From Thermodesulfobacteriota bacterium (GTDB lineage Bacteria > Desulfobacterota > WTBG01 > JAGOGO01): a stretch of 32,000 nucleotides of DNA. Shown one piece after another: positions 3,345-30,549 of this stretch. The notes below the pieces were generated by a model, which was not told the DNA's origin, did not search any database, and was given only the letters and a program-made list of their open reading frames with translations. Location: the NCBI GenBank assembly GCA_026625185.1, contig CP113000.1, forward strand, positions 2,115,622-2,147,621, written 5' to 3'. The position numbers were made by a program, and so were the translations under genes. Position 1 is the stretch's first letter; each line of letters begins with the position of its first letter.

Positions 3345-4658
3345 TTAGGCGTTTAGATACCGGTTCGCGGTCATAAAATCCCGCTGCTGCCGTGTGCTTT
3401 GATATTCGATGGGTACAACCAATCCCCCTGCCGCGTGCACCGCCAGCGCCAGCGCCCAGAATCGGTCTGCATGCGAGTCGTCGCTTCTCTCCGCGTCAAA
3501 CCTGATATTACCGCTGGAGGTTGTGAGCTTTTTAACGCTGTGAAAATCGTCGCGCTGCTTGCGGTCAATCGGGATCCGGATTTGCCGGTCTTCAAATTTT
3601 TTACGCAGTGTATTGGCCAGATCGAGTTTTACCGGCCCGGTAAACAGCACGCCTTCCACCGTATATTCTCCGTATTTTTTCTTTGCGTCCTCGACCGGTT
3701 TTTCGCCCATTCCGGTCTGGTCAATACATACCCGCCGCGGATGATATTGTCGCACAATCCGGTCAAGCTCTTGATCCTGCTCTGAAAATTTTGCCCCTTT
3801 CATCTCGATTTTCTCCCGTGTCCACAAAACGTCCCCGACCATTTCCAGCACATAAAAAACCGTAAGGTCGCGCCGCCGGCCGATATCCATCCCCGCGTAA
3901 AATGGGCCGTTGCCGGACAGATCGGGATTGTTGGCGCTGTCATGCTCCACCGAATTAATGAGATCGTAGGTAAGAAAAGCGGTCGCTTCATCCAGAAATT
4001 TCAGCTCATATTCCTGCTGCCACAATTCCTCATCATCAATCGCGTCTTTCAGAAGGGCGATATCATGTGGACAGCCATCGTTTACCGCCTGATAGATATC
4101 AACACTATGTTTGGAGAAAATCGGATTATTCCAAACCTCGTAGGCTTTGTTCTGTTTGCCTTTGGGGGTGAAAGTAATCACCAGCCGGTAGCCGGTGCGT
4201 GAAATAATCGGAAAAACTGCGGCCCAGATTTCACGGCTGTTTTTGTGGACTGAAAACTCATCAAGATACACGTTGGCGGAATAACCGCGGGCAGTGTCCG
4301 GGTTGGCGGGCACCCCGATCACTCGTGATCCGTTGCGAAACCCAACCTCCAGCACCCGGTACTCATCGCGCTCGCCGTTTTCCGCGGTGTATCCATAGGT
4401 GTTTTCAATAAAATCCATTGTCATGCCGGTGATCTCGCCGTGGAGCTTGATTTTCTCCATTAATTCTTTAACCTGGCGCTCACCTGATGAGATGGTTACC
4501 CATTTATTGTGGTCTCGCTCCCGGCAGTCCAATACGATCTCCGCGGCAGAAGAAAACGATTTGCCGGTCTGCCGCGCCCACATCCCCTCCTTGAATCGGG
4601 ATGTGTCATTGATCCATTTTTTTTCGTAGGGGTAAAGCTGAATTGCCGGATCAGACAA
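3345..4658 (-). CDS. terL: terminase large subunit (Mu gp28-like)
   Basis: 437 aa. It has a Walker A-like WARQTGKSFS and a C-terminal nuclease-like region. It sits between the gp27-like gene and the portal, and its start overlaps the upstream stop by 8 nt. Confidence 0.85.
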   Translation of the reverse strand: MSDPAIQLYPYEKKWINDTSRFKEGMWARQTGKSFSSAAEIVLDCRERDHNKWVTISSGERQVKELMEKIKLHGEITGMTMDFIENTYGYTAENGERDEYRVLEVGFRNGSRVIGVPANPDTARGYSANVYLDEFSVHKNSREIWAAVFPIISRTGYRLVITFTPKGKQNKAYEVWNNPIFSKHSVDIYQAVNDGCPHDIALLKDAIDDEELWQQEYELKFLDEATAFLTYDLINSVEHDSANNPDLSGNGPFYAGMDIGRRRDLTVFYVLEMVGDVLWTREKIEMKGAKFSEQDQELDRIVRQYHPRRVCIDQTGMGEKPVEDAKKKYGEYTVEGVLFTGPVKLDLANTLRKKFEDRQIRIPIDRKQRDDFHSVKKLTTSSGNIRFDAERSDDSHADRFWALALAVHAAGGLVVPIEYQSTRQQRDFMTANRYLNA

Positions 4659-5166
4659 GACCGTATACCCTTTCCTTAATAAAATTTACGAGTTCATCTT
4701 TGGTCATGGTTTTTGCGTTTTTCTCGGCATCCTTCACCAATTTTTTTGCCTTTTCTTTAACATCTACTTTAAATCGTTCCCGCATTACCGTGGAGCTTTG
4801 TAACTTTGCAAATTCACCCATGAGTTTTGGTATTTTTTCTAAATCAACCTTGCCGTCAATGAGCAAGTTAATCAGGTTTTCGGCCAATAGCTTGCTGATT
4901 GTCTCTTCTAAAACCATTCCTTCGCCGGCCTGGCTGACCAGAGCTTTTGATTGGTCCTCAACAATCCTGAGCCTTTGATATGTCGCTAAAAATCTTTTGC
5001 CATAACGCCCAAACGCACTTCGACTGATGTCATAGCCTTTCTCCGTGGCAAATTCATAAATATCGTCATAGGTAACGCCCGGCTCGAGGAATAGCCGATT
5101 GACCTCAGCGAGTATTTCGGGAGGCAGCTCATCCGAAACCCGGCTGTGCTGGCGGACTTTAGGCAT
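4651..5166 (-). CDS. DUF3486/Mu gp27-like protein (putative small terminase/DNA-binding subunit)
   Basis: LPPEILAEVNRLFLEPGVTYDDIYEFATEKGYDISRSAFGRYGKRF matches the N-terminal HTH pattern of gp27-like proteins. I prefer ATG at 5166 (MPKVRQH), which overlaps the upstream stop by 8 nt, over the track start at 5217. Confidence 0.7.
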   Translation of the reverse strand: MPKVRQHSRVSDELPPEILAEVNRLFLEPGVTYDDIYEFATEKGYDISRSAFGRYGKRFLATYQRLRIVEDQSKALVSQAGEGMVLEETISKLLAENLINLLIDGKVDLEKIPKLMGEFAKLQSSTVMRERFKVDVKEKAKKLVKDAEKNAKTMTKDELVNFIKERVYGLV

Positions 5167-5413
5167 TTTCTCCCAGCTCCCTTTTAATGTCCGCGATCTG
5201 GTCGAGCAATTGGACATACTCCGTATGCAAATCGTCCAGCTCGATGATTAATTGCCGGGCCTCGCCGGTTTTTAGCTCGGCAAAAGGCCGGATCGCCCCG
5301 GGCTGGATAATTATTTTGATCGCCCTGATAATGCCGTCGGCCTTGGTCACAATCGCGATTTGCTTACGTTTTTTTTCGGCCAGCGCGCCCTGCAAAATTA
5401 ATCGTTCACTCAT
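5159..5413 (-). CDS. hypothetical phage protein (coiled-coil, 84 aa)
   Basis: ATGA overlap with the upstream gene at 5410-5413 and an 8-nt overlap with the downstream gene. No recognisable motif. Confidence 0.5.
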   Translation of the reverse strand: MSERLILQGALAEKKRKQIAIVTKADGIIRAIKIIIQPGAIRPFAELKTGEARQLIIELDDLHTEYVQLLDQIADIKRELGENA

Positions 5414-5805
5414 TCGGGTACCCTCTTTATTTTTTGATTTTCTATTCGCACCATCGGGCAGAACTGATTTTGTTCGATGGCCGCTGTCAGCTGGGTAAAT
5501 GCCTGCGTGTTCATCATCACAATATCCTTGAATTCCCCCAGATGCCCTTCGTAATCCTTGGTGAGCTTTTCGTTTTTATCCACGAGGGCGGCATTATTTT
5601 TGTACATCGTTACCATTGCCTCAAACTGTCTTTTTTGTGTCTCAAACTGTCTATCCTGCCGAGTAGAATTTATCGCCATCCACAGATAGGGTCCGCCGAG
5701 AATGAGTACGATGATGAACAAAACAATCGCGCCGAAATGCCAGCTACTCATCATTTCAAGCACTTTAAGCAATAATGTTACCGCTGTAATTTGCTCCGGT
5801 GTCAT
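5410..5805 (-). CDS. single-pass membrane protein of the lysis cassette (i-spanin- or holin-like)
   Basis: ATG 5805 forms an ATGA overlap with the endolysin stop. There is an N-terminal TM segment (HFGAIVLFIIVLILGGPYLWMAI) followed by a coiled-coil-like region. I prefer this start over the track start at 5901, which would lie inside the endolysin gene. Confidence 0.5.
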   Translation of the reverse strand: MTPEQITAVTLLLKVLEMMSSWHFGAIVLFIIVLILGGPYLWMAINSTRQDRQFETQKRQFEAMVTMYKNNAALVDKNEKLTKDYEGHLGEFKDIVMMNTQAFTQLTAAIEQNQFCPMVRIENQKIKRVPE

Positions 5806-6326
5806 GTTTTCTCCCCGATTAATTTTTGATAGGTCGCCCACACCTTGCGGACGTGGTTGATCATTTGCTTGTAATCTGGCCGCTTGCCTCTGACCAAGCA
5901 CGTTGGATCAGCCAGATACTGCGCTATTTCGTCCCAGGTCGGCGGTATTGCCGCCTTGTGGGTTCGTACTCGGTAAAGCCCGATCGCTTTTTTGATATAA
6001 CCCCGTCCTCCGTTATAAGCGGCCAGAGCGGCTTTGTAGCGCGTCTCCTGGTCGGTTAATTCACGCAGCCGATCAAACTGTATGGCAAAATAAGCGGTTC
6101 CAATCCGAATATTTGTGATGGGATCTTTGAGTCGTTCCGGGTTGACAATCCCCAGATCTTTCGCGGTCGCGGGCATAATCTGCATTATTCCGATCGCACC
6201 GCATGGGCTTACCGCATTGGGGTCTAAATGAGACTCCTCTACCCCCATCGCCTTAAACAATTGCCAGTCGTGGCCGAGGTCTTTGTCGCGCTGTTTAAAT
6301 AAGAGGTCGTATTTTGTGTTATTCAT
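5802..6326 (-). CDS. lytic transglycosylase (SLT domain) endolysin
   Basis: GVEESHLDPNAVSPCGAIGIMQIMPATAKDLG contains the catalytic E-S and GxMQ motifs of SLT/goose-type transglycosylases. Confidence 0.85.
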   Translation of the reverse strand: MNNTKYDLLFKQRDKDLGHDWQLFKAMGVEESHLDPNAVSPCGAIGIMQIMPATAKDLGIVNPERLKDPITNIRIGTAYFAIQFDRLRELTDQETRYKAALAAYNGGRGYIKKAIGLYRVRTHKAAIPPTWDEIAQYLADPTCLVRGKRPDYKQMINHVRKVWATYQKLIGEKT

Positions 6327-8756: not shown

Positions 8757-9266
8757 TTAACCCTTTACCCTTAACCCTTGTGCTTCGCGTAGCTCATATT
8801 CAAACTTCTCCTTCGGCTTCTTATCCCCGCCGATCGCGATAATTTTCTCAATCGGCCATTTTTCTACCATCTCCCGGTCAACGCTTTTGGCGATTTTAAT
8901 CGCCTCATTCCAACCCAGGCTTTCTATTGCTTCCACCGCGTTCTTCGGGAGCGACAGCCTCGCCTCGGTCGTATGTATCACTATGCCGTGGGGCAGGGTG
9001 ACCTTTTCGGCTTTATTGAACAGTTCGGCCTTGTTTTTTTTCAGGCAGGTGATAAGCGTTTTCTCATCCATTGCCAGCGTTTCCTGGAGAGTCTCTATTT
9101 TTGCCTGATATTGTTTTCTGATCTCAGCAATTTGTTTTTCAACGTCCGCCTCGATGCGGGCTATACGTTTGACCAGATCACCGATATAGTAGAGGTGATC
9201 ATCTATCTCATCATGCAATACTTTTTGCTCATTGCTCATTGCTCTTAGCTCTTTAGGCAGCGTCAT
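8757..9266 (-). CDS. gam: Mu Gam-like host-nuclease inhibitor
   Basis: 169 aa. N-terminal coiled coil (IGDLVKRIARIEADVEKQIAEIRKQYQAKIETLQ), then a VTLPHGIVIHTTEARLSLP segment, which is the Gam family pattern. The position matches the Mu early region. An alternative start exists at 9239. Confidence 0.7.
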   Translation of the reverse strand: MTLPKELRAMSNEQKVLHDEIDDHLYYIGDLVKRIARIEADVEKQIAEIRKQYQAKIETLQETLAMDEKTLITCLKKNKAELFNKAEKVTLPHGIVIHTTEARLSLPKNAVEAIESLGWNEAIKIAKSVDREMVEKWPIEKIIAIGGDKKPKEKFEYELREAQGLRVKG

Positions 9267-10260: not shown

Positions 10261-10713
10261 TATTTCCATCCGATATTTATCCCGGCTCGTTACAGCGTAA
10301 ACATGTTCGGTGCCCATGCCGGTTTTGCGTCTTCCAGCCCTGTTTAAATATCCGCTCCGATACAGGCGGGTGATAATTTTGGTCACGTAGCTTTTCTCGG
10401 GCGCGCCGGAAATGCGTTGAATATCCGATACCGTAAACCGGCTGATTGACACGTAGATGGCCTTTAAAATTTTTTGTCGGATGCCGTCCTGGTATCCCGG
10501 TTTCCATTTGTGGTTGTAACGATAAATGTCCGCATCTGGGTCGGTGATAACCTCACCGCGCTCGATAAAATCTTTGAGCGCGGCATACACTTTGATGCGA
10601 TCCGGCCCCACCGGGATATCAAGCCCTGTGTAAATCGACTCCCTTGTAAAAAATGGGCGTTTTTGTTCTCTCATCCACGCGCGCATTTGTTTTGCCAGTC
10701 CGGTTTTTTTCAT
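10255..10713 (-). CDS. winged-helix DNA-binding phage early protein
   Basis: 152 aa. FTVSDIQRISGAPEKSYVTKIITRLYRSGYLNRAG has a MarR-like wHTH pattern. ATGA-type overlap with the MuB-like gene (10710-10713). Confidence 0.5.
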   Translation of the reverse strand: MKKTGLAKQMRAWMREQKRPFFTRESIYTGLDIPVGPDRIKVYAALKDFIERGEVITDPDADIYRYNHKWKPGYQDGIRQKILKAIYVSISRFTVSDIQRISGAPEKSYVTKIITRLYRSGYLNRAGRRKTGMGTEHVYAVTSRDKYRMEIL

Positions 10714-11399
10714 TTTGTGCCCGTTATTTCTTTTACCAGGTCAAGGCTCACCTCGGTTAATCCGCTCGCCCGCATCGCCCGCTCAATCGTGATTGACGCG
10801 GTCAGCACTGGTCTCCAGTCACCGTTTGAGTGCTTATGGAGCGCGGTTACAACCTCCGGAGCCGGTTTGATCTCCAGGGCTTTTCGCAAAAAAAGCACAA
10901 TGTCCGGCTGGGTAAGCGGCGAGAATCCCATCCTCCTCCGTATTCGGGAGGAGAGACGCCGACGGCTCTCGATTTTTCCTTTCATTCCTTCTTCTCCGAT
11001 CAGCAGCACCGGGCAGGAGTAGCGTTCATTGAGGTTGCGCAGCATCTCCAAAACCTGCATGGCGAGCAAATCCGCTTCGTCAATGATGATCAGCCGCCGG
11101 TCTTTTGCCATCTCGTCGCCGATAATGGTGAGGCAGGTCTCGGACCGGCCCGGGCGCACCGTGCAAAGCTCAAAAGTGATCTCCCGCAGGAGCATCGGGG
11201 CGCTCCGGATATTGAGCGGAGGCAGATAAATCGCGGTTCCCCTCGCGGCGTATTGTTTCGCGGCCTCGGATTTACCTCTGCCTGCCGGGCCGGTGACCAT
11301 CGCGAGCGACGGCCCGATCAGGCTTTGCGGGTCTTCGAGTTCCGCGCAGATGTCGTTAAATTTGGTAATATTTTGCGTCTGGATAAATTCATTTTTCAT
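10710..11399 (-). CDS. MuB-like AAA+ ATPase (transposition target-DNA activator)
   Basis: Walker A VTGPAGRGKSEAAK, Walker B LIIIDEADLL. It lies immediately downstream of the transposase. Confidence 0.85.
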   Translation of the reverse strand: MKNEFIQTQNITKFNDICAELEDPQSLIGPSLAMVTGPAGRGKSEAAKQYAARGTAIYLPPLNIRSAPMLLREITFELCTVRPGRSETCLTIIGDEMAKDRRLIIIDEADLLAMQVLEMLRNLNERYSCPVLLIGEEGMKGKIESRRRLSSRIRRRMGFSPLTQPDIVLFLRKALEIKPAPEVVTALHKHSNGDWRPVLTASITIERAMRASGLTEVSLDLVKEITGTK

Positions 11400-11409
11400 T
11401 GCTCCTCCT

Positions 11410-11451
11410 TGCTGTTTGCTCTCTTTGCTCTTAGCTCTTTGCTCTTTGCGC
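11410..11451 (-). repeat. tandem heptamer array (GCAAAGA on the sense strand, ~6 units) between the transposase and the MuB-like gene
   Basis: Plus strand: tgctgtt tgctctc tttgctc ttagctc tttgctc tttgcgc. AAGGAGG plus ATG 11399 follows on the sense strand. Confidence 0.8.
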
Positions 11452-13673
11452 TACAACCCCATCTCCCTTGCTACCTCCCAGTACTCCCGCTGATCCGCAG
11501 GCATTGCTGCCTCGTGCATCTCCATCCACTCTCTGTCCTCCGCGGTCAGTTCCCCGCCTGCTTTTTGATATTTGAAACACCACTCATGTCTTTCCAATTC
11601 CGACAAAAAGTATTTCGGTCTCGGAGGCAGCGGTTTTTTGCGGATTTGCATCTCCGCGGCCTGTGTTGTTTCTTCGAGCGCGGCAACTTCCGCCTCCATC
11701 TCATCAGGCGTGCGCTGCCGATAGAGTTCGGTCTGCGCGGCAACCTTTTTGCGCCGTTCATCACCGACTATGGCCGCGGCTTTTTCAAGCGCCGGGACGT
11801 TGGAGTATTTTCTAAAATCCGGTACCCGTGAGGTAAGCTCGTGGTATTTTTGAGAGAATTCTTTGCGCCGTTTTGCTTTTTCTTCGATTTTTCGCTCCGC
11901 TAATTCATGGTCTTTCATTGAGGAGTACTCGACCAGTTCGGCGCTGGAAACAAATTCTCCCTGATAAAAAACCAGGATGTCGTCCGGATCCACCGGGTCG
12001 TATCGGAGATCAACCGAATTTCCGTGAAACGGAATTAACGCGTCACTTTCATATTGTTTTCCCTGGAAGGTGATCCGGCCCCGGTCAACTTTGCGGCTCG
12101 CGCGGGGGAGAAAGAGTATGTTAATCGCGTCGTCTGATAATTTTACCGGCCGCCAGCTCTCGTGCAGATAGCACGCTTCAAGGCATTGGATCGGAGTCGC
12201 GCTTTTTGGTTTCGGTTGACCACGCCATTCTTTGAGCACGCCTCGATGCGTCTTTTCCCGGTTGTAATAATCGGCGGCCAGGTACATGGCCAGGACAAAC
12301 TCTCTGTAGGTAGTGAGCTTGCCGGATCTGGCCAGGCTCTCGATTTCTTTCTGGTCAATATCCTGATGCTCGCTCGGAGCGGTGAGTCGTTTGACATTTC
12401 CGGGCAGGAGGAAGCGGTTCCGCATGATGCCTTCTAAAACATTGTTTGTGCCCTCGATCATTTTCGCTTTCGCGTTTTTTACGATCGCCCTCCGGTGTTC
12501 GCCGGGCATGACAAACGCGGGCATGATCTCCTCCGGGTCCTGGCCGTTAAGATCGATGGGGTAATCAATTTCTCTCTCGACCGAAAGCCCCAGCGCTCGC
12601 ATGTCCTTCATAATACCTATGATGTAGCGGGAGTTTTCCGGTTTGCCGTTATCGGTATAGATATTTTTAAAAGCGCCGAAACACCGGATGCCGATGTGAA
12701 GCGCCATACCCATGAGCGCGGCGTCATAGCGCCGGTCTATGGCGATGCCGTAAATAATGCGCGTGCGCAAGTCCTGCCACATGTAGCATTCCGGTCTGAA
12801 TACCTCGCCGGTCTCCTCATCAACCACCCAAAAATCGAAGCGATGCTGGTCGCCCACCAGGATTTCAAAAGGTTCGAGGTCGGAGTAATCGCGAAGGATC
12901 GGTGGAAGCGTGTTGTCAAGCGCTCTTAGGCCTCCTTTCTGCAGGGCTAAGAGCTGGGGGTTAAGCCTTTTTTTAAGCCACCAGAGGGCTGATTCGTATG
13001 AACCGGTCTGCCATGATCGATTGTGCGCCTCTATTTTGAGGCACTTAAAGAGAGAGTCTTTGGATATCTTGCGGTGCGACCGCTTTAATACCATGCCCAG
13101 CCAGAAGTCAACCGCTTCTGGCGTCCAGACTTTTGGGGTTTTTCGGGTAGATTTCCGGTGAGTTAATCCTACGAGGCCCTGGGAATTATATTTCTTTAAC
13201 TTCTTATATATAGTTCTCCAGTCAACCTCGTGGCGTAGAGCCACGTTTTCTATCCAGGCGCGTTTTTTCCAGCCTGCGGGAGCGCGTTCGGCTTCCTGGA
13301 TAATGCGCACCCAGCGGGTAAATTTTTTATTCTTGAGGTCCTTTTCCGAGATGGAGTGTTCGGTGGTTTGAATCCGTGTGTCCCGGATGCCGGCAAGGCT
13401 CGTGTCCGGAAAATCGGTAAGCTTTCTTAACGCTATCAGCGCCGCTTCCGGCGCCAGCACGGGAAGCATCTCGGCTGAGGTCGGGGTTGATTTTTCGGCA
13501 ATTTTTTTCTGGATATCGGAAGGGAGGGAGGAGAGGAGATAATGCTTTGTCTTTCCGCCGTTGCCGGCTTCTGTTTTGTGCGGCCAGGCTTCTTTTTGTG
13601 CGCGCCGCATAATCGTGGTTTTGTTAAGTCCGGTGGTCTCCGCAAGCTTTTTGGCTGTATATGCAGATTTCAT
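11451..13673 (-). CDS. MuA-like DDE transposase
   Basis: 740 aa. N-terminal HTH (AKKLAETTGLNKTTIMRRAQKE). Candidate DDE triad contexts are VGDQHRFDFWVVD, IYTDNGKPENS and AKAKMIEGT. The long C-terminal region is typical of Mu-type transposases. Confidence 0.9.
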   Translation of the reverse strand: MKSAYTAKKLAETTGLNKTTIMRRAQKEAWPHKTEAGNGGKTKHYLLSSLPSDIQKKIAEKSTPTSAEMLPVLAPEAALIALRKLTDFPDTSLAGIRDTRIQTTEHSISEKDLKNKKFTRWVRIIQEAERAPAGWKKRAWIENVALRHEVDWRTIYKKLKKYNSQGLVGLTHRKSTRKTPKVWTPEAVDFWLGMVLKRSHRKISKDSLFKCLKIEAHNRSWQTGSYESALWWLKKRLNPQLLALQKGGLRALDNTLPPILRDYSDLEPFEILVGDQHRFDFWVVDEETGEVFRPECYMWQDLRTRIIYGIAIDRRYDAALMGMALHIGIRCFGAFKNIYTDNGKPENSRYIIGIMKDMRALGLSVEREIDYPIDLNGQDPEEIMPAFVMPGEHRRAIVKNAKAKMIEGTNNVLEGIMRNRFLLPGNVKRLTAPSEHQDIDQKEIESLARSGKLTTYREFVLAMYLAADYYNREKTHRGVLKEWRGQPKPKSATPIQCLEACYLHESWRPVKLSDDAINILFLPRASRKVDRGRITFQGKQYESDALIPFHGNSVDLRYDPVDPDDILVFYQGEFVSSAELVEYSSMKDHELAERKIEEKAKRRKEFSQKYHELTSRVPDFRKYSNVPALEKAAAIVGDERRKKVAAQTELYRQRTPDEMEAEVAALEETTQAAEMQIRKKPLPPRPKYFLSELERHEWCFKYQKAGGELTAEDREWMEMHEAAMPADQREYWEVAREMGL

Positions 13674-14894: not shown

Positions 14895-15509
14895 GTGAAA
14901 AATCGCATGAATAATGAGTCTCTTTTAAAAGATCGAACCCGATGGGCAATAAATTATATTTGTAAAAAGGAGCGTTACTCGAATGAGTCGCTTGGAAATT
15001 TGCTTGATATTAATAAAAATACAGTCTCAAGTTACCGGTTAACATATACCGTCCCTAATATTGCTTTTGTTCTAAAGTTTTGTGATAAATTTGGATTTAA
15101 CTATGAGTGGTTTATTTTTGGTAAGGGCGAGCCGTTTCCAGGAGCGAGAGCTGAATTCCCGGAGGTTTGCGGGCCGGAGCAACGCCAGCCGGTGGAGCTG
15201 AAGGCTACAATAACAGGTGATCAGACGGCAAATTATACAATGCCAGGTGTCGATCAATTTGGTCAGGCGGTTTCTCAATTAAAAACGATATTCGACAACC
15301 GCGATCCGACGTTTATCCAGGCTATAATGGCCAACCTGAACACTTTTGGGCGGGCCATTGAAGAAAACCAGGAATTACGTAATAAAATCAATTCACTGGA
15401 AAAAAGAATAGCCGAATTAGAGGCGGGGGTACAAAGGGAGGGTGGGGACGTTCGAGGCGATACCTCTGTAGAAGGGACTGGCCGCTCTACCGAAAAGAAG
15501 GCCGGGTGA
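14895..15509 (+). CDS. c-like phage repressor (CI-repressor-type HTH)
   Basis: LGNLLDINKNTVSSYRLTYTVPNIAFVLKFCDKFGFNYEWFIFGKGEPF matches the Phage_CI_repr HTH, which ends in WLxxGxG. It is divergent from ner. The start is either GTG 14895 or ATG 14907. Confidence 0.7.
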   Translation: MKNRMNNESLLKDRTRWAINYICKKERYSNESLGNLLDINKNTVSSYRLTYTVPNIAFVLKFCDKFGFNYEWFIFGKGEPFPGARAEFPEVCGPEQRQPVELKATITGDQTANYTMPGVDQFGQAVSQLKTIFDNRDPTFIQAIMANLNTFGRAIEENQELRNKINSLEKRIAELEAGVQREGGDVRGDTSVEGTGRSTEKKAG

Positions 15510-15557: not shown

Positions 15558-16490
15558 GTGGTTAATAAAAAAAGGCTTTCTCCCATTTATTTGGATAAAA
15601 TAGATGCTTGTGAGGGGTCAAACATCGTCTATCTTCGGCCAAGTCGGAACCGTCGTCGTATAGTTTTTGGTTGGTATGGAGGAAAATTTAGTCATCTTGA
15701 GTGGCTACTGCCCTTACTACCACAATGTCATCACTATTGCGAGCCTTTCGCTGGGTCTGCTGCTGTTCTGTTGAACCGTGAACCTTCACCGGTTGAGACA
15801 TATAATGACATTGACGGAGACGTAGTTAACTTCTTTCGCGTACTGCGAGACCGCCGTGATGAAATCGTTAGGGCAATTGCTCTTACCCCCTTTTCCCGCG
15901 AGGAATACCATCTTGCTATTTACGGAAATACTAAAGCAATAACCGATGTAGAGCGAGCTCGACGCTTCTATATACGAGCCCGTCAAACACGAACGGGGCT
16001 TGCTCAAACTGCTTCGCTCGGTCGCTGGGCAAACTGCAAAAATACGAGCCGTGCCGGAATGTCTGGTGTGGTTTCCCGCTGGTTGGGTGGGGTTGATGCG
16101 CTGAATTTTATTGCGCAGCGTCTAATACGAGTCCAAATCGAAAACCGGCCAGCTGAGGATATGATTAGGCTTTACGATGCTAATAACACCTTGTTTTATT
16201 GCGATCCGCCCTATCTGCATGCTACACGTGGGGACTCAAAGGCTTATGGTTTTGAAATGGATGAGAGCCATCACCGAGAACTTGCCAAACTGCTAAATGA
16301 ATGCCGAGGAAAGGTGGCTCTGTCTGGTTACAACCACCCGCTTATGGATGACCTATACCCAAAGAAAAAATGGTTTAAAACAATGGGACCAGAAAAAACT
16401 ATTCATTCAACCAAGGGCACGAGATGTGAACTGCTCTGGACAAACTACGATCCCAACAAGGGAAGACAAAAAAAATTATTTGATAAATAA
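15558..16490 (+). CDS. Dam-family (D12 class) N6-adenine DNA methyltransferase
   Basis: FGWYGGK, the AdoMet motif EPFAGSAAVLLN and the catalytic FYCDPPYLHATRG (DPPY) appear in alpha-class order. GTG start with GGAGAG 5 nt upstream. Confidence 0.9.
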   Translation: MVNKKRLSPIYLDKIDACEGSNIVYLRPSRNRRRIVFGWYGGKFSHLEWLLPLLPQCHHYCEPFAGSAAVLLNREPSPVETYNDIDGDVVNFFRVLRDRRDEIVRAIALTPFSREEYHLAIYGNTKAITDVERARRFYIRARQTRTGLAQTASLGRWANCKNTSRAGMSGVVSRWLGGVDALNFIAQRLIRVQIENRPAEDMIRLYDANNTLFYCDPPYLHATRGDSKAYGFEMDESHHRELAKLLNECRGKVALSGYNHPLMDDLYPKKKWFKTMGPEKTIHSTKGTRCELLWTNYDPNKGRQKKLFDK

Positions 16491-16492
16491 AA

Positions 16493-17620
16493 ATGAAACC
16501 TACCCCAGAACAAATATTGGAGGAAATTTATAAGCGTGCCGAAAATTCGCGCAAAAAGTCTTTCATAACCGATGGGGTAATAAAAAAACAAATTGACTAT
16601 GTTTGCCATTGCACGAGTAACCGCGCCGGTGTTCGATTGTTAATGGCTTGTCTTTTAGGAAAATTAGATAATCCGAAAGTTGATCCCCGAATGCCCTATA
16701 CGGAGATCGGAACTAATGACTGTTTTTCGGGGCGCACCTATGATGAACGCTATATAACACACTTTATTAACGTGCACCGCTTGCCCTGCAATCCGACGAC
16801 CGCCTTTCTAACGCCTACCTTGCGTAATATAGACCGTCCTCTTAAAACTGATACTGAGCTTGTGGGAAGACCGCGAGAACTTTACAAAACTACTCTCCAA
16901 TTATTGGAGGAAGTTGCCAAGAACCGTATTAGCGCCGACATTGTTTTTATTGAAGTTGTGCGTATATTACTAAATGCCCGCGACGAAAAGTTAAACCGCA
17001 TAGCTTCGCTTCTCAAATCCATTAAACGTGGGGAGGGAGCCTTGCCGCTCTCGTCTGAGACAATCGTTACACTAATCGAGCAACATCTGGCTTGTAAAAA
17101 ATCAAGCCGTCTTCCGGTATTGGTAGTAGCTGCTGCGTATCAGGTTGCCGGGAAACGAATAGGGGAGCGCGTTTTGCCGCTCAACTCTCATAATGCCGCT
17201 GACTTACAAACTGGCTCTATCGGTGACGTGGAGGTTTGTCTTGTTGGAGATGATAACGTCGTTACCGCTTACGAAATGAAGATGAAAAGGGTAACGATAG
17301 ATGATATAGACGGAGCAATAAATAAAATCGTTAAAGCATCACAAAGGATTCATAATTATATCTTTATAACTACCGAAAAGATTGACCCAGAAACAGCCGA
17401 ATATGCTTTAAAATTTTATGAGGAAACAGGGGGAATTGAGATCGTCATACTTGATTGTATCGGCTTTTTAAGACATTTTTTGCATCTATTCCACCGGCTT
17501 CGTACAGATTATTTAAATACTTATCAGACTCTTGTGTTGGAGGAGCCTGATTCGGCAGTTAGTCAGTCTCTAAAAGAGGCTTTTCTTGCTTTAAGGCAGT
17601 CTGCTGAGAGTGGTGAATAA
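16493..17620 (+). CDS. putative type II restriction endonuclease (PD-(D/E)xK)
   Basis: It starts 2 nt after the methyltransferase stop. The core SHNAADLQTGSIGD245VEVCLVGDDNVVTAYE261MK263 gives D-x15-ExK. Confidence 0.6.
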   Translation: MKPTPEQILEEIYKRAENSRKKSFITDGVIKKQIDYVCHCTSNRAGVRLLMACLLGKLDNPKVDPRMPYTEIGTNDCFSGRTYDERYITHFINVHRLPCNPTTAFLTPTLRNIDRPLKTDTELVGRPRELYKTTLQLLEEVAKNRISADIVFIEVVRILLNARDEKLNRIASLLKSIKRGEGALPLSSETIVTLIEQHLACKKSSRLPVLVVAAAYQVAGKRIGERVLPLNSHNAADLQTGSIGDVEVCLVGDDNVVTAYEMKMKRVTIDDIDGAINKIVKASQRIHNYIFITTEKIDPETAEYALKFYEETGGIEIVILDCIGFLRHFLHLFHRLRTDYLNTYQTLVLEEPDSAVSQSLKEAFLALRQSAESGE

Positions 17621-17750: not shown

Positions 17751-18305
17751 ATGAAGACTAAAAAGGGAAAGAAGGACGTTCTCGATCTCAAGGGTGACAT
17801 GCGAGTGGTGAAGAGACTTCTTCAACTATATGACGCATGTTTGAAAAATGCGGAGGCTCTCTTATCCGAAGCAGATTTACTCTTCAAGAAAGGCCACCAC
17901 CCAAGGGCGTTTACTCTTGCCCACACTGGCTGGGAAGAGACTGGAAAGTCCCAACTCGTGGCCGACTTCTTGAACCAAATGGTTTCCCCAGTGGAGTTCG
18001 AGGCCGCCTTCAAGGATCACAAACTGAAATCTGCATATAACTGGAGACGGTTTGTTTGGAACTTTGCCAACATCGCTGACTCCACAATTGAATACGACCG
18101 TAACAAAACGACAGCGGGTCTGCAAAAACGTCACTCATCACTTTACGTTGGGAAAAACACCGATTTTAGCCCTATTGCACCTGAGAGTCAGGTTAGTAAA
18201 GAGGAAGCACATACGGTCATCGAAGCTCTACGGAACGAGATTAAGAAGATAAACTTGTACGATGCAATCACTGAACGAGTCGGTTCAAAGTCTTTTCTGA
18301 AGTGA
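17751..18305 (+). CDS. AbiV-like abortive infection protein
   Basis: LYDACLKNAEALLSEADLLFKKGHHPRAFTLAHTGWEETGKSQLV follows the AbiV family N-terminal helix pattern (NAxxLLxDAxxLxxxGxYxxAxxLxxxxxEExGK), as I recall it. Confidence 0.6.
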   Translation: MKTKKGKKDVLDLKGDMRVVKRLLQLYDACLKNAEALLSEADLLFKKGHHPRAFTLAHTGWEETGKSQLVADFLNQMVSPVEFEAAFKDHKLKSAYNWRRFVWNFANIADSTIEYDRNKTTAGLQKRHSSLYVGKNTDFSPIAPESQVSKEEAHTVIEALRNEIKKINLYDAITERVGSKSFLK

Positions 18306-18497
18306 GGCGGCCCTATGCTGGCCGCAACCAACACGAAACAAGAATATAGGCCAGTCGGAGGAAGGCTATAGAAAACAGACGTATGGGAAAACGGGGACGT
18401 CACTAAAATTATAAAATTCTTAACAACGGGGTCTTATACGGATCAATATAAATATTTTTTGAATTGAAGTACTGGTTTGGAGGACAGGAGGAAGTAT

Positions 18498-19016
18498 ATG
18501 CTCAACCTCAGTGATCTTACCAACGGCTTGCCTGCTATTACACCAGCATTCGGCCAATACCTGGCCGAGGCAGGGGCTGTGTGCTTAGAATCTCAAGGAC
18601 ATTCCAAGGGTCAAGGGCTTTCCGTGCAAGGAATACATTCGCAATTCTACTCTCTCTACTGGCCCAATATTACGGATCAGATGGAAAGATGCCTTAACGA
18701 TCCCGATGTCGCGACGGAGCACGGGGCAGTTGGAATAGCGGTCCTACTTATAAAGCGTTTGATAGGTTATGCGGTAATAGAGCGGTCACGAAAGGGAACG
18801 GGCTTCGACTATTGGCTTGGAGACGAAGCAGATATGCCTTTCCAGAATAAGGCAAGACTCGAGGTTTCTGGTATTAGAAATGGAGACCAAAAAACCGTCA
18901 ACGCTCGTGTTCGACAGAAACTGACGCAGACTGAGGTATCCGACAAAATGAGGTTACCGGCCTATATTGTGGTTGTTGAGTTTGGCCGACCTCTTGCTGA
19001 AGTGAGGCAACGATGA
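18498..19016 (+). CDS. hypothetical protein with a PD-(D/E)xK-like (restriction endonuclease fold) motif pattern
   Basis: AGGAGG at 18486-18491, then ATG 18498 (the track ORF begins at TTG 18477). E81...GFD111YWLG...RLE129VS131G, using track numbering. Confidence 0.7.
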   Translation: MLNLSDLTNGLPAITPAFGQYLAEAGAVCLESQGHSKGQGLSVQGIHSQFYSLYWPNITDQMERCLNDPDVATEHGAVGIAVLLIKRLIGYAVIERSRKGTGFDYWLGDEADMPFQNKARLEVSGIRNGDQKTVNARVRQKLTQTEVSDKMRLPAYIVVVEFGRPLAEVRQR

Positions 19017-20128
19017 AGGACGCGAACGAACTCCACAATGAGTCTATGGACCGGGCTGAGTTAGCACTCTTGGCCCGTATGAGGGGCGAACATGAGGAGG
19101 CAGAGCGTCTATTCACAGAATCCCTTCAGCTTGAAATGGAAGCAATTGAGGTAGTTGATCAGTTGCCGTACGTTGAGCCGAATTACTCTATTCTCCACTG
19201 TAGCGCTGCCACACTTGCTCTTGATTGCAATGATTCGCGCCTCGCGGAAATGTTGATCAGCAAGGCTCTCGCCCACGATCCCCCCCCGCAGATAGCAGAC
19301 GAACTCCGGGACTTATTCGAACAAGTCCAGTTCCGCCGACATCTCCAGTTGCGTGGGATAACCCTGGCCGAGGACGAACTGCAGATGAGCTTGGCTGGCC
19401 AAGGAGTAGGCTTTGGCGTTGTCCATAGTGGTGAGTTTCTTCAAAGAATTGATGGCGCTTCGAAAATTATATATAGGATCGTGGAGCGCCGTCAGAATAA
19501 GCCTTTCCGAGAAAAAGGCCGTCTGGCGCGACTCATTAAGGACGACTATGAGCTCTTTCTGTCTGTTCCTCGCGCCGCGAGTTTTGCAGTTACACTAAAA
19601 TTGGGTCACCCGTCTAACCAGCCCAAATTGCCAGGTATTGCGGATGCGTTTGAAATCGTTAACGAATTTATGACCCTTATGGGTCTCGTCAATAAAGCCG
19701 ACTTCTCCGCAATCGAATCACGAATTCCTGATCCTGTTTATAGAACGAATTTCGTACAATTGGCTAAGCGGTTGGCTCCAGACGGGGATAACGTCAAGGT
19801 TGTTGGATTCACTTCGATTCACGAAGGGCGAGAAAGGTTTGTTGAAGTCACGCGGCCTAAAACCAAGATCATAACTCCTGAGCCGAGGTCCGTAGTGCAG
19901 GCTGAGTTGGTAGTTGTTCGAGGTGTGCTGCGATTTGCGGACGCCACTCACACAGACAGCGGGCATATCAAGATCGTCGACGAAGAGAGTAAGACTACTC
20001 ATCAAGTAAAGGTCCCGGAGGGCATGATGAACGACATCGTAAAACCACTGTGGGACACGACAGTGGTGATCAAGGGTAGACGGGAAGGGAATTACATTCT
20101 TCTTCAGGATATTATTGAAGAAGAATAG
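19013..20128 (+). CDS. hypothetical 371-aa protein (N-terminal TPR-like helices, remainder unassigned)
   Basis: ATGA overlap with the upstream gene (19013-19016). The frame is long and clean with balanced composition. No catalytic or NTP-binding motif recognised. Confidence 0.7.
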   Translation: MKDANELHNESMDRAELALLARMRGEHEEAERLFTESLQLEMEAIEVVDQLPYVEPNYSILHCSAATLALDCNDSRLAEMLISKALAHDPPPQIADELRDLFEQVQFRRHLQLRGITLAEDELQMSLAGQGVGFGVVHSGEFLQRIDGASKIIYRIVERRQNKPFREKGRLARLIKDDYELFLSVPRAASFAVTLKLGHPSNQPKLPGIADAFEIVNEFMTLMGLVNKADFSAIESRIPDPVYRTNFVQLAKRLAPDGDNVKVVGFTSIHEGRERFVEVTRPKTKIITPEPRSVVQAELVVVRGVLRFADATHTDSGHIKIVDEESKTTHQVKVPEGMMNDIVKPLWDTTVVIKGRREGNYILLQDIIEEE

Positions 20129-20215
20129 GTTCGAACCAGTCGCTGCACCGAATCGGCTGGAAACGGCGCCTACCTCCCGGTGAGCTTTCCGTTAAATTTT
20201 ATGATTATGAGTATT

Positions 20216-20236
20216 TTTTTAAACTACGTGCGGAGA
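20216..20236 (+). repeat. direct repeat copy 1 (tttttaaactacgtgcggaga)
   Basis: 19 of 21 nt match 21362-21382, with a 14-nt exact core aaactacgtgcgga. Statistical support is only marginal in AT-rich DNA. Confidence 0.35.
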
Positions 20237-20303
20237 TGTGATAATTTCTATAGTTAAAAGAAAAAAGTTGGGGAATAATTTCCGCAATTCTTAGGTCTGG
20301 GGT

Positions 20304-20489
20304 TTATTTTTTGTCCAATCCAGTCCCTTCGTTTTCTTTTTGTTGATTTAAAGGATTTACCTCGTTGGAAATATTATTATTTTGAGATAATATAAGACAT
20401 CCAGGAATGGAAAAACACTGAACTGCAAAATCTCTCTCTGCCTCCAACCAGGCCGTTTTATAGTCATCGGGATATAATCTGGTGTACAT
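20304..20489 (-). CDS. hypothetical 61-aa protein, operon partner of the Ntn hydrolase
   Basis: Strong RBS AAGGAGGG 6-7 nt before ATG 20489. It starts 19 nt after the upstream stop. Confidence 0.55.
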   Translation of the reverse strand: MYTRLYPDDYKTAWLEAERDFAVQCFSIPGCLILSQNNNISNEVNPLNQQKENEGTGLDKK

Positions 20490-20508
20490 AAAAAGACCCT
20501 CCTTTTAC

Positions 20509-21180
20509 CTAAATTTCAATAGTTTTTGTAATGTTACCCACACCAGGAGCTACTTCGCTACGTTTTTTTGCCTTTTCGATAAAATCTTTTACCGCTTCTT
20601 TACTAAGTGATTTTTTATAATCGGCTTCGATAAGTGAATATAAAGCATGAGGTCCACCGGACCCGATGGCAACAAAACCGATCGGATCATGGCATATCAT
20701 ATCACCGGGGTTTATGACTGTGTAAATATGACAAGCAGAATCGTCTTTTCCCGCCAGAATAAATTCAACTCCAGCGTTATATTTTATAAATGCTTGGTCA
20801 ATAATTTGAACAAGGCTTGGAAAGAGTTTTTGCTGTAAAGTTAAATAAGAATTTAAATCCAGTCCCCGTGGTTCTAATTCATTTCTGATGATGCGAAGTT
20901 TCCGAACCAACTGGTATGATTCTCTTAATATATCTGCTATCCGCTGTGTTGATTGAATGTTTTCAATGTTAACGCGCTGTTTTGTTATCTTTATAATTTC
21001 ATTAGCAAATAATACATCTCCAGCAATTAAAACCCAGGCGTTATCAGTAATCTTTACGATTTTATCTATTTCTTGATTTTCAAATTCATACCCAATCGGG
21101 AAATGAGCCGTAATCATTTGATCTGATGTAAGAATACACCCATTACCATTATCACATAAAGCAGCTATACATACGGTCAT
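20509..21180 (-). CDS. proteasome-type (T1 family, HslV/Anbu/BPH-like) Ntn hydrolase
   Basis: MTVCIAAL places Thr directly after the initiator Met. This is followed by LTSDQM, DKIVKITDN, LIAGDVLFA and VAIGSGGPHALYSL, in the order of the proteasome beta-subunit motifs. RBS AGGGAGGA. Confidence 0.65.
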   Translation of the reverse strand: MTVCIAALCDNGNGCILTSDQMITAHFPIGYEFENQEIDKIVKITDNAWVLIAGDVLFANEIIKITKQRVNIENIQSTQRIADILRESYQLVRKLRIIRNELEPRGLDLNSYLTLQQKLFPSLVQIIDQAFIKYNAGVEFILAGKDDSACHIYTVINPGDMICHDPIGFVAIGSGGPHALYSLIEADYKKSLSKEAVKDFIEKAKKRSEVAPGVGNITKTIEI

Positions 21181-21361
21181 TTTTATTCCTCCCTTGATTT
21201 TTTCTTTTTTCTTAAAATCTAATGTAATAATAAGTTCGTTTTTTTTAAAAAATCAATCTTTTTTTATAATATTATGGTTTTATAGAATGCAATTTTCACA
21301 CCATTAAAATTAAAATTATTCAACCACTGGTGTTTTTGGGTAAAAAATTCACCTTTAAAAT

Positions 21362-21382
21362 TTTTCAAACTACGTGCGGAAA
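21362..21382 (+). repeat. direct repeat copy 2 (ttttcaaactacgtgcggaaa)
   Basis: See 20216-20236. It is followed by ...gatttcattaCA at 21405-21416, which resembles a Mu-type TG/CA terminus read in reverse. Confidence 0.35.
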
Positions 21383-21571
21383 ATCTCTCTTGAATTTTGT
21401 CGCCGATTTCATTACAAAAAAACAGGGGTTAGCGGGTAAGAGTGTGGCGACAAAATTTTCTCCAAATTTCATCTAACTTCTTATTATCCCGGCATTTACC
21501 GGCATATCCCACCTAATCCCGTTATTCTCCTATTATGTTACATTCCTCACACGTTTATAAAGGAGGAAAGA

Positions 21572-21874
21572 ATGGTTAAACGATTTGGTATCCTTGTAAT
21601 AATAGTTGCGGCAATAGCAGTCTTTTCCGGCTGCGCGTGCCAAAAAGACCTTTCGGCTGAGAACTGGGGACGGTCTTTTGAATTGGCCAAATATAACCAG
21701 TATCTGAATCCAGAAGCAGGAAAAAATCTGGAACCGGTTGAGGGCTTAAATGGATGGGCCGCTGATGCGGTTATGGCAGGGTACCAGGAATCTTTTAAAG
21801 GCGGCGGAAAAGGCCCACAGAGCGTCAATTTGAATCTGGGAAGCATTTCCGGCATCGGACAGGCAAAACAGTAA
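21572..21874 (+). CDS. small lipoprotein at the head of the tad cluster
   Basis: RBS AAGGAGG. Signal peptide with lipobox AVFSGC. 100 aa. Confidence 0.7.
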   Translation: MVKRFGILVIIVAAIAVFSGCACQKDLSAENWGRSFELAKYNQYLNPEAGKNLEPVEGLNGWAADAVMAGYQESFKGGGKGPQSVNLNLGSISGIGQAKQ

Positions 21875-21975
21875 ATGTAAAGGGTGAGGTGTAAAACGTA
21901 AGGTGTTACGATTTACACCTCACCCTTTACGATTAACGCTTTACGTGGGTGAAGAAGGTAAGGGGTAAAGACTTT
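21871..21975 (+). repeat. tandem heptamer array (~15 units) with internal dyad symmetry
   Basis: gtaaatg taaaggg tgaggtg taaaacg taaggtg ttacgat ttacacc tcaccct ttacgat taacgct ttacgtg ggtgaag aaggtaa ggggtaa. Confidence 0.8.
21877..21930 (+). terminator. 25-bp stem (one mismatch) hairpin after the lipoprotein gene
   Basis: gtaaagggtgaggtgtaaaacgtaa / ttacgatttacacctcaccctttac with loop ggtg. It is embedded in the heptamer array at 21871-21975. Confidence 0.6.
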
Positions 21976-22179
21976 ACATAGTTTTTTTCCCTGAAATACA
22001 TAAAATACTCTATGGATTTATTTGCTGGATAATGGAAGAGATAAAAAAGGAAAAAATGAGGAAACCCCTCAATCCCCCCTTCGTAAAGGGGGAAGGATTT
22101 ATTTTTATAGATTTTTCTTTTTCCTGCTAGAATTTTTATTATCTCTACCCGCCGGTGAAAGATAAATTCGCTTTAACTT

Positions 22180-22267
22180 CCTCTCCCCGCTGGGGAGAGG
22201 ATAGAGGTGAGGGGTAAAATAAATAAAGTTCCCCCTCACCCTGACCCTCTCCCCCGAGGGGAGAGGG
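22180..22267. repeat. MITE-like element: two inverted copies of the DUF559-associated terminal repeat with a 10-nt spacer
   Basis: cctctccccgctggggagagg-ata-gaggtgaggggta (22180-22216) faces the inverted copy ccccctcaccctgaccctctcccccgaggggagaggg (22231-22267). Confidence 0.75.
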
Positions 22268-30153: not shown

Positions 30154-30549
30154 ATGAAACGCAGGAATATCGACCGATGCAGAAATTTGCGGAAGCAACA
30201 GACGGAAGCGGAAAAGAAGCTTTGGTCAATAGTTCGGAATCGTCAAATTGGTGGAATAAAATTCAGACGCCAGTTTTCGATAGGGAGGTATATAGTAGAT
30301 TTTTATTGTCCTGCATATCTGGTTGGTATTGAGGCGGATGGGGATCAACATTGTGAAGATAAGGTTAGTAAAAGCGATGAAATCAGGACAAAATAATTAA
30401 AAGAACGTGGTTTTGAAATAATAAGATTTAATGATCGCGAACTATTGAACAACATTGAAGGAGTGTGTGAAGTTATTAGGAAGGTTTTAGAAAGAAGAAG
30501 AGATAAAGCACCTCACCTCAATCCTCTCCCCTCTGGGGAGAGGAGGTAA
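30154..30549 (+). pseudogene. DUF559 (Vsr-like PD-(D/E)xK endonuclease) gene interrupted by an in-frame TAA at 30394-30396
   Basis: N-part: LRKQQTEAEKKLWSIVRNRQIGGIKFRRQFSIGRYIVDFYCPAYLVGIEADGDQH...DEIRTK, then stop. The same frame continues LKERGFEIIRFNDRELLNNIEGVCEVIRKVLE, the normal DUF559 C-terminus, and ends at 30547-30549. Confidence 0.75.
30509..30546 (-). repeat. right terminal inverted repeat of the DUF559 element
   Basis: The reverse complement tacctcctctccccagaggggagaggattgaggtgaggtg mirrors the unit at 30115-30154. Confidence 0.7.

Follow-up and report, generated by a model that had tools for sequence, protein, structure and literature searches.

A proteasome-type protease and its conserved small partner as mobile cargo: a possible toxin-antitoxin-like module

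What does a proteasome-type protease do in a bacterial genome when neither an alpha subunit nor an unfoldase gene lies nearby? This question is raised by a stretch of 32,000 nucleotides from a closed 3.30-Mb Thermodesulfobacteriota genome (contig CP113000.1, positions 2,115,622 to 2,147,621; hereafter the window), in which a two-gene, AT-rich cassette bounded by a direct repeat occupies positions 20215-21382, between a cluster of defence genes and Tad pilus genes. Its first gene (20509-21180, minus strand) encodes a 223-aa Thr1 hydrolase of the N-terminal nucleophile (Ntn) type, related to proteasome beta subunits and annotated as 'hypothetical protein' (NCBI WAC06615.1). The second gene (OS130_10150; 20304-20489, minus strand) encodes a protein of 61 aa. 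Our analysis revealed that the protease and its small partner recur together in many phyla and that an active lineage of IS1-family transposons carries the pair as its constant cargo, while stand-alone copies also exist. We tentatively favour a reading of the pair as a mobile toxin-antitoxin (TA)-like conflict module, in which the protease would be the effector and the partner would restrain it through a conserved helix.

A preliminary description of this DNA had pointed to a 223-aa open reading frame (ORF) starting with MTVCIAAL and to a 61-aa ORF with a strong ribosome binding site (RBS) 19 nt downstream, and both are present. As read from the sequence, the protease RBS is GGGAGGA (21187-21193, minus strand), 6 nt ahead of the ATG, while that of the partner is AAGGAGGG (20497-20504, minus strand), 7 nt ahead of the ATG and within the 19-nt gap that follows the protease stop codon. 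The region upstream of the protease (21181-21360) is very AT-rich (GC about 0.28-0.30) and contains candidate promoter-like sites on the minus strand at 21256-21227, 21299-21271 and 21344-21315, which are matches to a sigma-70-like consensus only. The AT-richness of the cassette, at first judged by eye, can now be given as a GC content of 0.33 from repeat to repeat versus 0.468 in the remaining window. In 30 of 34 loci the pair is likewise richer in AT than the DNA on either side (median GC difference -0.108).

From the letters alone, the larger protein had been taken for a proteasome-type Ntn hydrolase with threonine directly after the initiator methionine, and a domain match, the predicted structure and the alignment of homologues now agree on this assignment. 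The protein matched Pfam PF00227 with an E value of 9.2e-11 (42.2 bits vs a cutoff of 22.4). Against the NCBIfam equivalog model of the archaeal beta subunit it scored 48.9, far under the cutoff of 224, and we therefore regard it as a homologue but not an orthologue of that subunit. The AlphaFold2 (AF2) model (pLDDT 95.6, pTM 0.91) shows the alpha-beta-beta-alpha sandwich of Ntn hydrolases. A Foldseek search with this model gave 1183 PDB matches at E <= 0.001, of which the top 50 were all 20S subunits, with 20S beta subunits matching best (TM 0.60-0.69, E about 1e-10, identity 14-19%); phage HslV-like proteins fitted less well (TM 0.5-0.58). At the sequence level, a profile of 111 family members reached only 20S beta subunits among the best 60 of 82 PDB matches (E <= 10), and none of HslV, Anbu, BPH or connectase appeared among these 60. 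By sequence and by structure alike, the best matches are archaeal and eukaryotic beta subunits. In the homologue alignment T2 (110/111), D20 (111/111), K40 (110/111), G54 (111/111) and S/T174 (110/111) are the counterparts of proteasome Thr1, Asp17, Lys33, Gly47 and Ser129, and the K40-to-G54 spacing of 14 equals that from K33 to G47. The segments LTSDQM, DKIVKI, AGDVLFA and AIGSGG, singled out in the preliminary description, fall on the columns T2, D20, K40, G54 and G173-S/T174-G175, which are conserved in 110 to 111 of the 111 sequences. Threonine directly follows the initiator methionine in 213 of 214 family proteins, and removal of this methionine would render the protease active. Compared with 20S beta subunits the model contains about 34 further residues, which form two additional helices between H1 and the next strand.

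A word-indexed search recovered 946 relatives of the protease, nearly all of them unnamed, and an exhaustive search of representatives gave 200 clusters at E <= 1e-30. The family splits into a compact core of 223-240 aa, to which the window protein belongs, and a larger sister group of 260-330 aa whose members end in a C-terminal strand-and-helix extension. The host genomes all belong to uncultivated lineages, namely Dehalococcoidia, Acidobacteriota, Alphaproteobacteria, Aminicenantes, Nitrospinales, Latescibacterota, bacteria of the candidate phyla radiation (CPR) and a Lokiarchaeon. The family was found neither in 50,697 phage records nor in 72,556 plasmid records, and IMG/VR held a single, distant match (27% identity). 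Fuchs, Alva & Lupas 2021 catalogued 22 families of uncharacterised proteasome homologues, many of them without an ATPase partner, and stated that no informative genomic context was found for them (PMC8665760). Our family is probably one of their widespread groups, WPH or PHI. In that catalogue PHI is defined by a helical insertion after H1/H2 and PMI-2 to PMI-6 by an insertion between H3 and H4 (PMC8665760). The model of the window protease has its extra helices between H1 and S6 and lacks an H3/H4 insertion. This comparison of predicted structure would allow PHI or WPH but speaks against PMI-2 to PMI-6, and we treat it as a lead only.

The second gene of the cassette recurs elsewhere: 31 of 47 non-redundant loci, spread over many phyla, have a small ORF (52-91 aa) with the motif W-x-x-A-E-R-x-[L/F] directly after the protease gene, which upholds the earlier claim that the 61-aa ORF is its partner. 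The start of this ORF lies between -89 and +24 nt from the protease stop codon, with many overlaps of 4, 8 or 17 nt. The layout is TA-like: the genes are adjacent, co-oriented and translationally coupled, with a short gap and a strong RBS in the window and overlaps in many other loci, and their surroundings are IS elements, integrases and defence islands. W14, A17 and E18 are invariant and Arg19 is nearly so, followed by a weakly conserved I/V-x-P patch; within the homologue set W14, A17, E18 and R19 are all invariant. Read from the sequence, W14, A17, E18 and F21 stand at positions i, i+3, i+4 and i+7 and thereby share one helix face. AF2 predicts a single helix for residues 10-26 (YKTAWLEAERDFAVQCF, encoded at 20412-20462 on the minus strand), with a pLDDT of about 90 across the motif, and values below 50 from residue 40 onwards indicate a disordered tail. 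The 34 partner homologues (51-94 aa) are all stand-alone proteins and none of them carries a domain; fusions of protease and partner were absent among 269 retrieved proteins. To judge from this conservation of motif and position, the 61-aa ORF is a genuine cognate partner of the protease. We also considered that the partner might be the split-off C-terminal helix of the long forms, arisen by gene fission, and rejected this, as the hhalign probability for homology with their strand-and-helix extension was 0.1%. In three loci from CPR bacteria and the Lokiarchaeon (L031, L039, L041) the protease gene is followed by another small ORF with the motif A-Y-x-[R/K]-W-G, which suggests a second partner type.

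The pair was found in unrelated neighbourhoods. A count of gene families in the flanks of 39 loci (147 genes) showed recurrence only for IS1 transposases, DNA methylases, integrases, AbiEii-type ATPases, HNH nucleases and helix-turn-helix (HTH) regulators. No unfoldase was detected among these 147 genes or in the window, and none of the Anbu-operon families (ATP-grasp, alpha-E, transglutaminase) occurred among the neighbours. The preliminary description had likewise noted that no gene for an HslU-like ATPase, an alpha subunit, an ATP-grasp protein or a transglutaminase is nearby, and this is borne out. Homologous gene pairs, which it had proposed to look for, are located among defence, TA and mobile genes and not in housekeeping Anbu or HslVU operons.

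The hallmarks of the IS1 family of insertion sequences (IS), as defined in ISfinder, are a DDE_Tnp_IS1 transposase, terminal inverted repeats starting with GG...TG and a target duplication of 8-9 bp. One Acidobacteriota genome contains a 2305-bp unit consisting of the protease gene, the partner gene and a gene for a 304-aa IS1-family transposase (PF03400, DDE_Tnp_IS1, above cutoff), which is 100% identical at three sites and present in a fourth, interrupted copy. Three identical copies in one genome point to recent activity of the element. Its 20-nt terminal inverted repeats GGGTAGTGTCTCAATTTGAA were found on both sides of the pair in roughly a dozen loci of diverse phyla, with the end consensus GGTAGTG[T/G][C/G]TCA[A/C/G]TTTGA, and nine of eleven elements are flanked by perfect 8-bp target duplications. 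In all of them the left end precedes the protease gene, by 0.1-0.45 kb where no nested insertions are present. Elements were delimited at L030:5557-7860 (also in L032 and L051), L028:5477-7829, L029:5046-7830, L006:7918-11095 and L002:5834-9701. The larger ones contain nested insertions of the IS3, IS5 or IS256 type, some of which split the protease gene, and some elements carry extra TA- or defence-like cargo, namely an AbiEii-like ATPase or a SocA/Panacea protein. The window itself contains no IS1 transposase or remnant of one, and no IS end when searched as an inverted repeat with up to 4 mismatches. In L030 the stretch from the IS left end to the protease gene contains a further small gene (5706-5927), which is kept in L028 and L067; it encodes a basic protein of 73 aa ending in ...AERRSEIARIAAQARWR, which gave no Pfam match and has no equivalent in the window.

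A link to a known toxin emerged from the closest relatives. In four of the six closest protease relatives examined (64-70% identity), a third gene follows about 10 nt after the partner and encodes an 87-88-aa ParE/RelE toxin (PF05016, E 1e-11 to 1e-15). These triads lie at L070:1120-1647, L073:1021-1554, L001:5509-6060 and L079:1080-1613. Their partners are longer (84-91 aa) and bear an added, antitoxin-like C-terminal tail, ...DAKEALIEAEEKGxxxLxxFIKELGL, that is missing from the 61-aa partner of the window, which aligns to the triad partners across residues 12-55 only. Of the other two relatives, P0008 has the pair alone and P0005 lies on a contig too short for a decision. Neither ParE nor the antitoxin tail has left a remnant downstream of the window partner. 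The order toxin 1, antitoxin 1 joined to the tail of antitoxin 2, toxin 2 fits the layout expected from the fusion of two adjacent TA modules.

How did the pair arrive at its position in the window? The direct repeat consists of a left copy, TTTTTTAAACTACGTGCGGAGA (20215-20236, 67 nt past the partner stop), and a right copy, TTTTTCAAACTACGTGCGGAAA (21361-21382, 180 nt upstream of the protease start), which agree at 19 of 20 positions between 20215-20234 and 21361-21380, with an exact 14-mer core, and at 20 of 22 positions when extended to 20236 and 21382. Each copy lies at one edge of the AT-rich segment. The repeat had at first been taken as only marginally unexpected, but it is rarer than that: any such pair occurred in 4% of dinucleotide shuffles of the whole window, a pair within 3 kb in 1%, and none in 1000 shuffles of the local AT-rich segment. 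The left copy is conserved in the strain variants L010-L012, and no third copy exists in the window. No flanking direct or inverted repeats were found in 33 other loci, with the exception of a repetitive extragenic palindromic (REP)-like repeat in L014. Where movement of the pair can be followed, it proceeds by IS1-type transposition with inverted ends and 8-bp duplications. Neither tRNA genes nor Rfam elements were found at the cassette borders. An empty insertion site was not encountered either, as all contigs that carry the flanking 100-aa gene or the protease share the same arrangement; a metagenome scan for such a site returned only an already known locus, and a single-sequence genome scan gave no match. 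Our preferred reading of the repeat is a locus-specific insertion scar, in which an att-like duplication of 20 nt marks the borders of the insertion. The view of the cassette as independently acquired accordingly holds in part: it is an orphan, it is compositionally foreign and the pair is demonstrably mobile elsewhere, while the role given to the repeat in its movement is not established. A horizontally acquired, self-contained two-gene module is the best explanation of the segment.

The IS1-type terminal repeat shares its inner 9 nt (AGTTTGAAA, compared with L028:5477-5496) with the inner part of the window repeat on the minus strand (CCGCACGTAGTTTGAAAA), and the outer GGTAGTG tip of the IS1-type end is not in the window; this identity could be a coincidence or a relic. 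Immediately to the right of the right repeat copy lies a perfect 12-nt inverted repeat, AATTTTGTCGCC ... GGCGACAAAATT (21393-21404 and 21446-21457, 41-nt loop), and two assemblies of one sample break within this interval.

According to the reading that we favour, the product of the first gene would be an N-terminal-threonine protease acting as a stable, potentially harmful effector, and the second gene, on the same transcript, would encode its cognate labile small protein with a disordered tail. The short amphipathic helix K-W-L-E-A-E-R-D-F-A might be the conserved contact through which the partner restrains the protease, be it by inhibition or by acting as a decoy substrate. Loss of the module or a shut-off of its expression, for example during phage infection, would then release the protease, and the module would work as a TA or as an addiction/abortive-infection system. 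The window copy is a transposase-less and ParE-less form inserted between the defence cluster and the Tad pilus genes. A selfish TA logic of this kind would explain the constant carriage as IS1 cargo, the TA and defence neighbours and the second, ParE-neutralising tail on some partners. The more specific proposal, that the Thr1 protease is a toxin and the helix-plus-tail protein of about 60 aa its dedicated inhibitor, together forming a transposon-borne TA or abortive-infection system that defines an IS1-family lineage by its cargo and spreads across bacterial phyla and archaea, is rather doubtful.

Several points weigh against the favoured reading. The analysis shows the fold, the catalytic residues, the conservation of the partner, the coupling of the genes, the mobility of the pair and the ParE triads, but binding of the partner to the protease, the direction of control, toxicity and a phage phenotype are all properties that we infer. 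Neither window protein matched a toxin, antitoxin or defence family in Pfam, NCBIfam, PADLOC or PHROG, and the defence or counter-defence function put forward in the preliminary description is not established, as PADLOC gave no match and the phage collections contained no close relatives. The distant family members of 260-330 aa lack a partner entirely, and a DNA-binding domain, which most type II antitoxins possess, is missing from the partner. Two catalytic accessory positions of the proteasome are also replaced. Asp166 aligns with Ser208, next to Glu209 (101/111), and Ser169 aligns with the invariant Ala211, all within RSEVAPGVG, an invariant motif specific to the family. This placement derives from an HMM/HH alignment to what we take to be the Thermoplasma beta sequence, and its range agrees with that of the PDB hit 3c91_H. 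Judged from these replacements, the activity of the protein could differ from classical proteolysis. Finally, contig L076, which corresponds to window positions 19275-21900 with 99.8% identity, has GGA changed to TGA at the invariant Gly144 codon (window position 20751), with two further substitutions within 100 nt of the nonsense codon; all three changes in the gene are G>T or C>A. The nonsense codon fits a dispensable toxin, yet it may be a sequencing artefact caused by oxidative damage or a real pseudogenisation.

The main rival to the TA-like reading reverses the roles of the two proteins. The protease would be a dedicated degrader that destabilises the small protein, with the W-AER helix as degron or docking motif, and the small protein would be a labile adaptor or antitoxin for another target, which in the three-gene forms would be ParE. 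A protease of its own would free the mobile module from host Lon or Clp, and the window copy, which has no identifiable toxin, may be stripped or decaying. The ParE triads in four of the six closest relatives are well explained in this way, the disordered tail of the partner is typical of protease substrates, the module is found in widely differing phyla, CPR bacteria and an archaeon among them, and the window partner has neither the tail nor a ParE remnant beside it. However, most loci (31 of 47) are two-gene forms without an adjacent toxin gene in which both genes are kept, P0008 is such a form even among the close relatives, and the selective value of this common form would be left without explanation. 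We consider the dedicated degrader unlikely, if still to be taken seriously. It is also conceivable that the pair serves the IS1-type transposon itself, by adjusting transposase levels or by processing a host factor, and that the stand-alone copies are stranded remnants. The conserved order of left end, protease, partner and transposase across phyla with intact target duplications speaks for such an accessory role in transposition, as does the recurrence of AGTTTGAAA in the minus strand of the window repeat. Yet most loci, including the window and all ParE triads, keep intact genes without any IS1 transposase or ends, the orientation of the transposase varies, and certain elements persist although nested IS insertions have split their protease gene. 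We consider this role improbable.

A similarly low probability is assigned to an ordinary stand-alone compartmental protease, like BPH or Anbu, that would form rings and clear unfolded proteins without an ATPase, with the partner as an assembly, capping or gating subunit and with mobility as an incidental trait. Such a role would be in line with a fold near that of 20S beta, with intact core catalytic residues and with the many orphan proteasome homologues that lack an ATPase partner (Fuchs et al. 2021, PMC8665760), but it is at odds with the patchy distribution of the pair, its AT-rich and foreign character in 30 of 34 loci, its multiple copies within a transposon and its link to ParE, and the partner shows no homology to the C-terminal extension of the long forms. 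A last possibility is suggested by the Mu-like prophage that fills the window from position 1 to about 14.4 kb. The repeats were originally considered as possible transposase sites of the prophage end; they would then be MuA-type sites at its left end and the cassette would be phage cargo, for instance for counter-defence. The prophage is adjacent, with its MuA gene at 11451-13673 (minus strand), a repressor-like gene (14895-15509, plus strand) is oriented toward the cassette, and the repeat ends in CGGAAA, which presumably bears a faint resemblance to Mu end sites. There are, however, only two copies, in the same orientation, 1146 nt apart and without any array; they lie 4.7 and 5.9 kb past the repressor stop (15509) and none is near the repressor. 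Nine related Mu-like phages, one of them with 90% MuA identity, contain no homologues of the intervening restriction-modification genes, AbiV and the 179/371-aa gene pair or of the protease, a family that is also absent from the phage records except for the one distant IMG/VR match. We therefore rejected the prophage-cargo reading as highly improbable.

Further prophage genes, like MuA on the minus strand, are the portal (1266-3335), terminase (3345-4658), gp27-like (4651-5217), transglycosylase (5802-6326), Gam (8757-9266) and MuB-like ATPase (10710-11399) genes; the 90%-identical MuA is encoded on IMG/VR contig L082. Within the Mu-like early region a direct repeat with 19 of 20 matching positions, CTC[A/T]TTGCTCTTAGCTCTTT, was observed at 9235-9254 and 11421-11440, one copy of which lies just upstream of the MuB-like gene end. 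The defence cluster that follows the repressor-like gene comprises a Dam-like methyltransferase (15558-16490), a SacI-like restriction endonuclease (16493-17620) and an AbiV/HEPN abortive-infection protein (17751-18305). The interval from AbiV to the cassette holds two genes for proteins of 179 and 371 aa (18477-20128, overlapping by 4 nt), which had no match in Pfam, NCBIfam, PADLOC or PHROG apart from a weak one to TPR; they could be an undescribed defence pair. On the other side of the cassette, a REP-like palindrome, TCCTCTCCCC[G/T]CTGGGGAGAGGA, occurs twice in intergenic DNA of the Tad region (22179-22201 and 30522-30544).

Which parts of this system are already known? The 20S beta subunits and HslV (MEROPS T1, PF00227) share with the window protease the Ntn fold, the threonine after methionine as presumed nucleophile and the equivalents of Asp17, Lys33, Gly47 and Ser129. 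They differ from it by an identity of 14-19%, by the roughly 34 residues that it has in excess, by the replaced Asp166 and Ser169 and by RSEVAPGVG, and as a system by the absence here of an alpha subunit, an unfoldase and a propeptide and by a mobile instead of a housekeeping nature. Unlike in HslVU, no HslU AAA+ unfoldase is found in the window or among the neighbours, and the ATP-grasp, alpha-E and transglutaminase genes of the Anbu operon are absent. Regulated proteolysis of a small labile protein is known from type VI SocAB, in which the antitoxin acts as a ClpXP adaptor, and from the tripartite toxin-antitoxin-chaperone (TAC) systems, which resemble the proposed module also in the three-gene layout of some relatives. 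SocAB and TAC use host proteases or a chaperone, whereas our module would encode a protease of its own. Type II TA modules have been described as integral parts of Tn3-family transposons by Lima-Mendez et al. 2020 (PMC7157771). The pair resembles these in having two coupled small genes beside a transposase, in recurring across the transposon lineage, in its TA and defence neighbours and in the bona fide ParE toxin attached in some relatives, and differs in that the putative effector is a proteasome-type protease and has no known toxin fold, that the effector gene comes first and that the carrier is an IS1 element. Connectase, an archaeal monomeric proteasome homologue, is directed at a single specific partner by a short conserved motif (PMC7980362), as the window protease might be. 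Between S3 and S4 connectase carries a helical insertion, it lacks H1/H2, it was not among the best 60 of the 82 PDB matches, and ligase chemistry is not indicated here. A further comparison is with BPH, Anbu and the families of Fuchs et al., especially the widespread WPH and PHI groups, which are uncharacterised, proteasome-like, present in bacteria and archaea, devoid of an AAA+ partner and equipped with insertions after H1/H2 (PMC8665760). WPH and some PHI members have a predicted C-terminal helix similar to that of the long-form relatives found here (PMC8665760). The survey gave no informative gene context for its families, whereas the present family has a conserved small partner, IS1 transposon carriage and ParE triads. 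A literature search for proteasome-like TA, defence or transposon systems found nothing relevant. Neither the fold nor the existence of orphan proteasome homologues is new. Dozens of such homologues have been recorded in prokaryotes, none of them with a known role. The conserved partner, the carriage by IS1 elements and the ParE fusion seem to have no earlier description in the searchable literature.

The analysis provides three handles on this protease family: a small partner with a 10-residue putative contact motif, the status as IS1-type cargo, and a ParE-neutralising tail in some lineages. With these, the function becomes directly testable with few constructs. If the TA-like reading fails, the family is still a well-defined new class of IS1 cargo. 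There is a fair, if less than even, chance that the pair stands for a so far unrecognised class of TA or defence system based on a protease. If the TA-like reading is true, proteasome-type proteolysis would join the conflict toolkit of mobile elements in the form of a compact protease-inhibitor pair, and if the protease is indeed a toxin, this would be the first biological role assigned to an orphan prokaryotic proteasome homologue and would define a new class of protease toxins.

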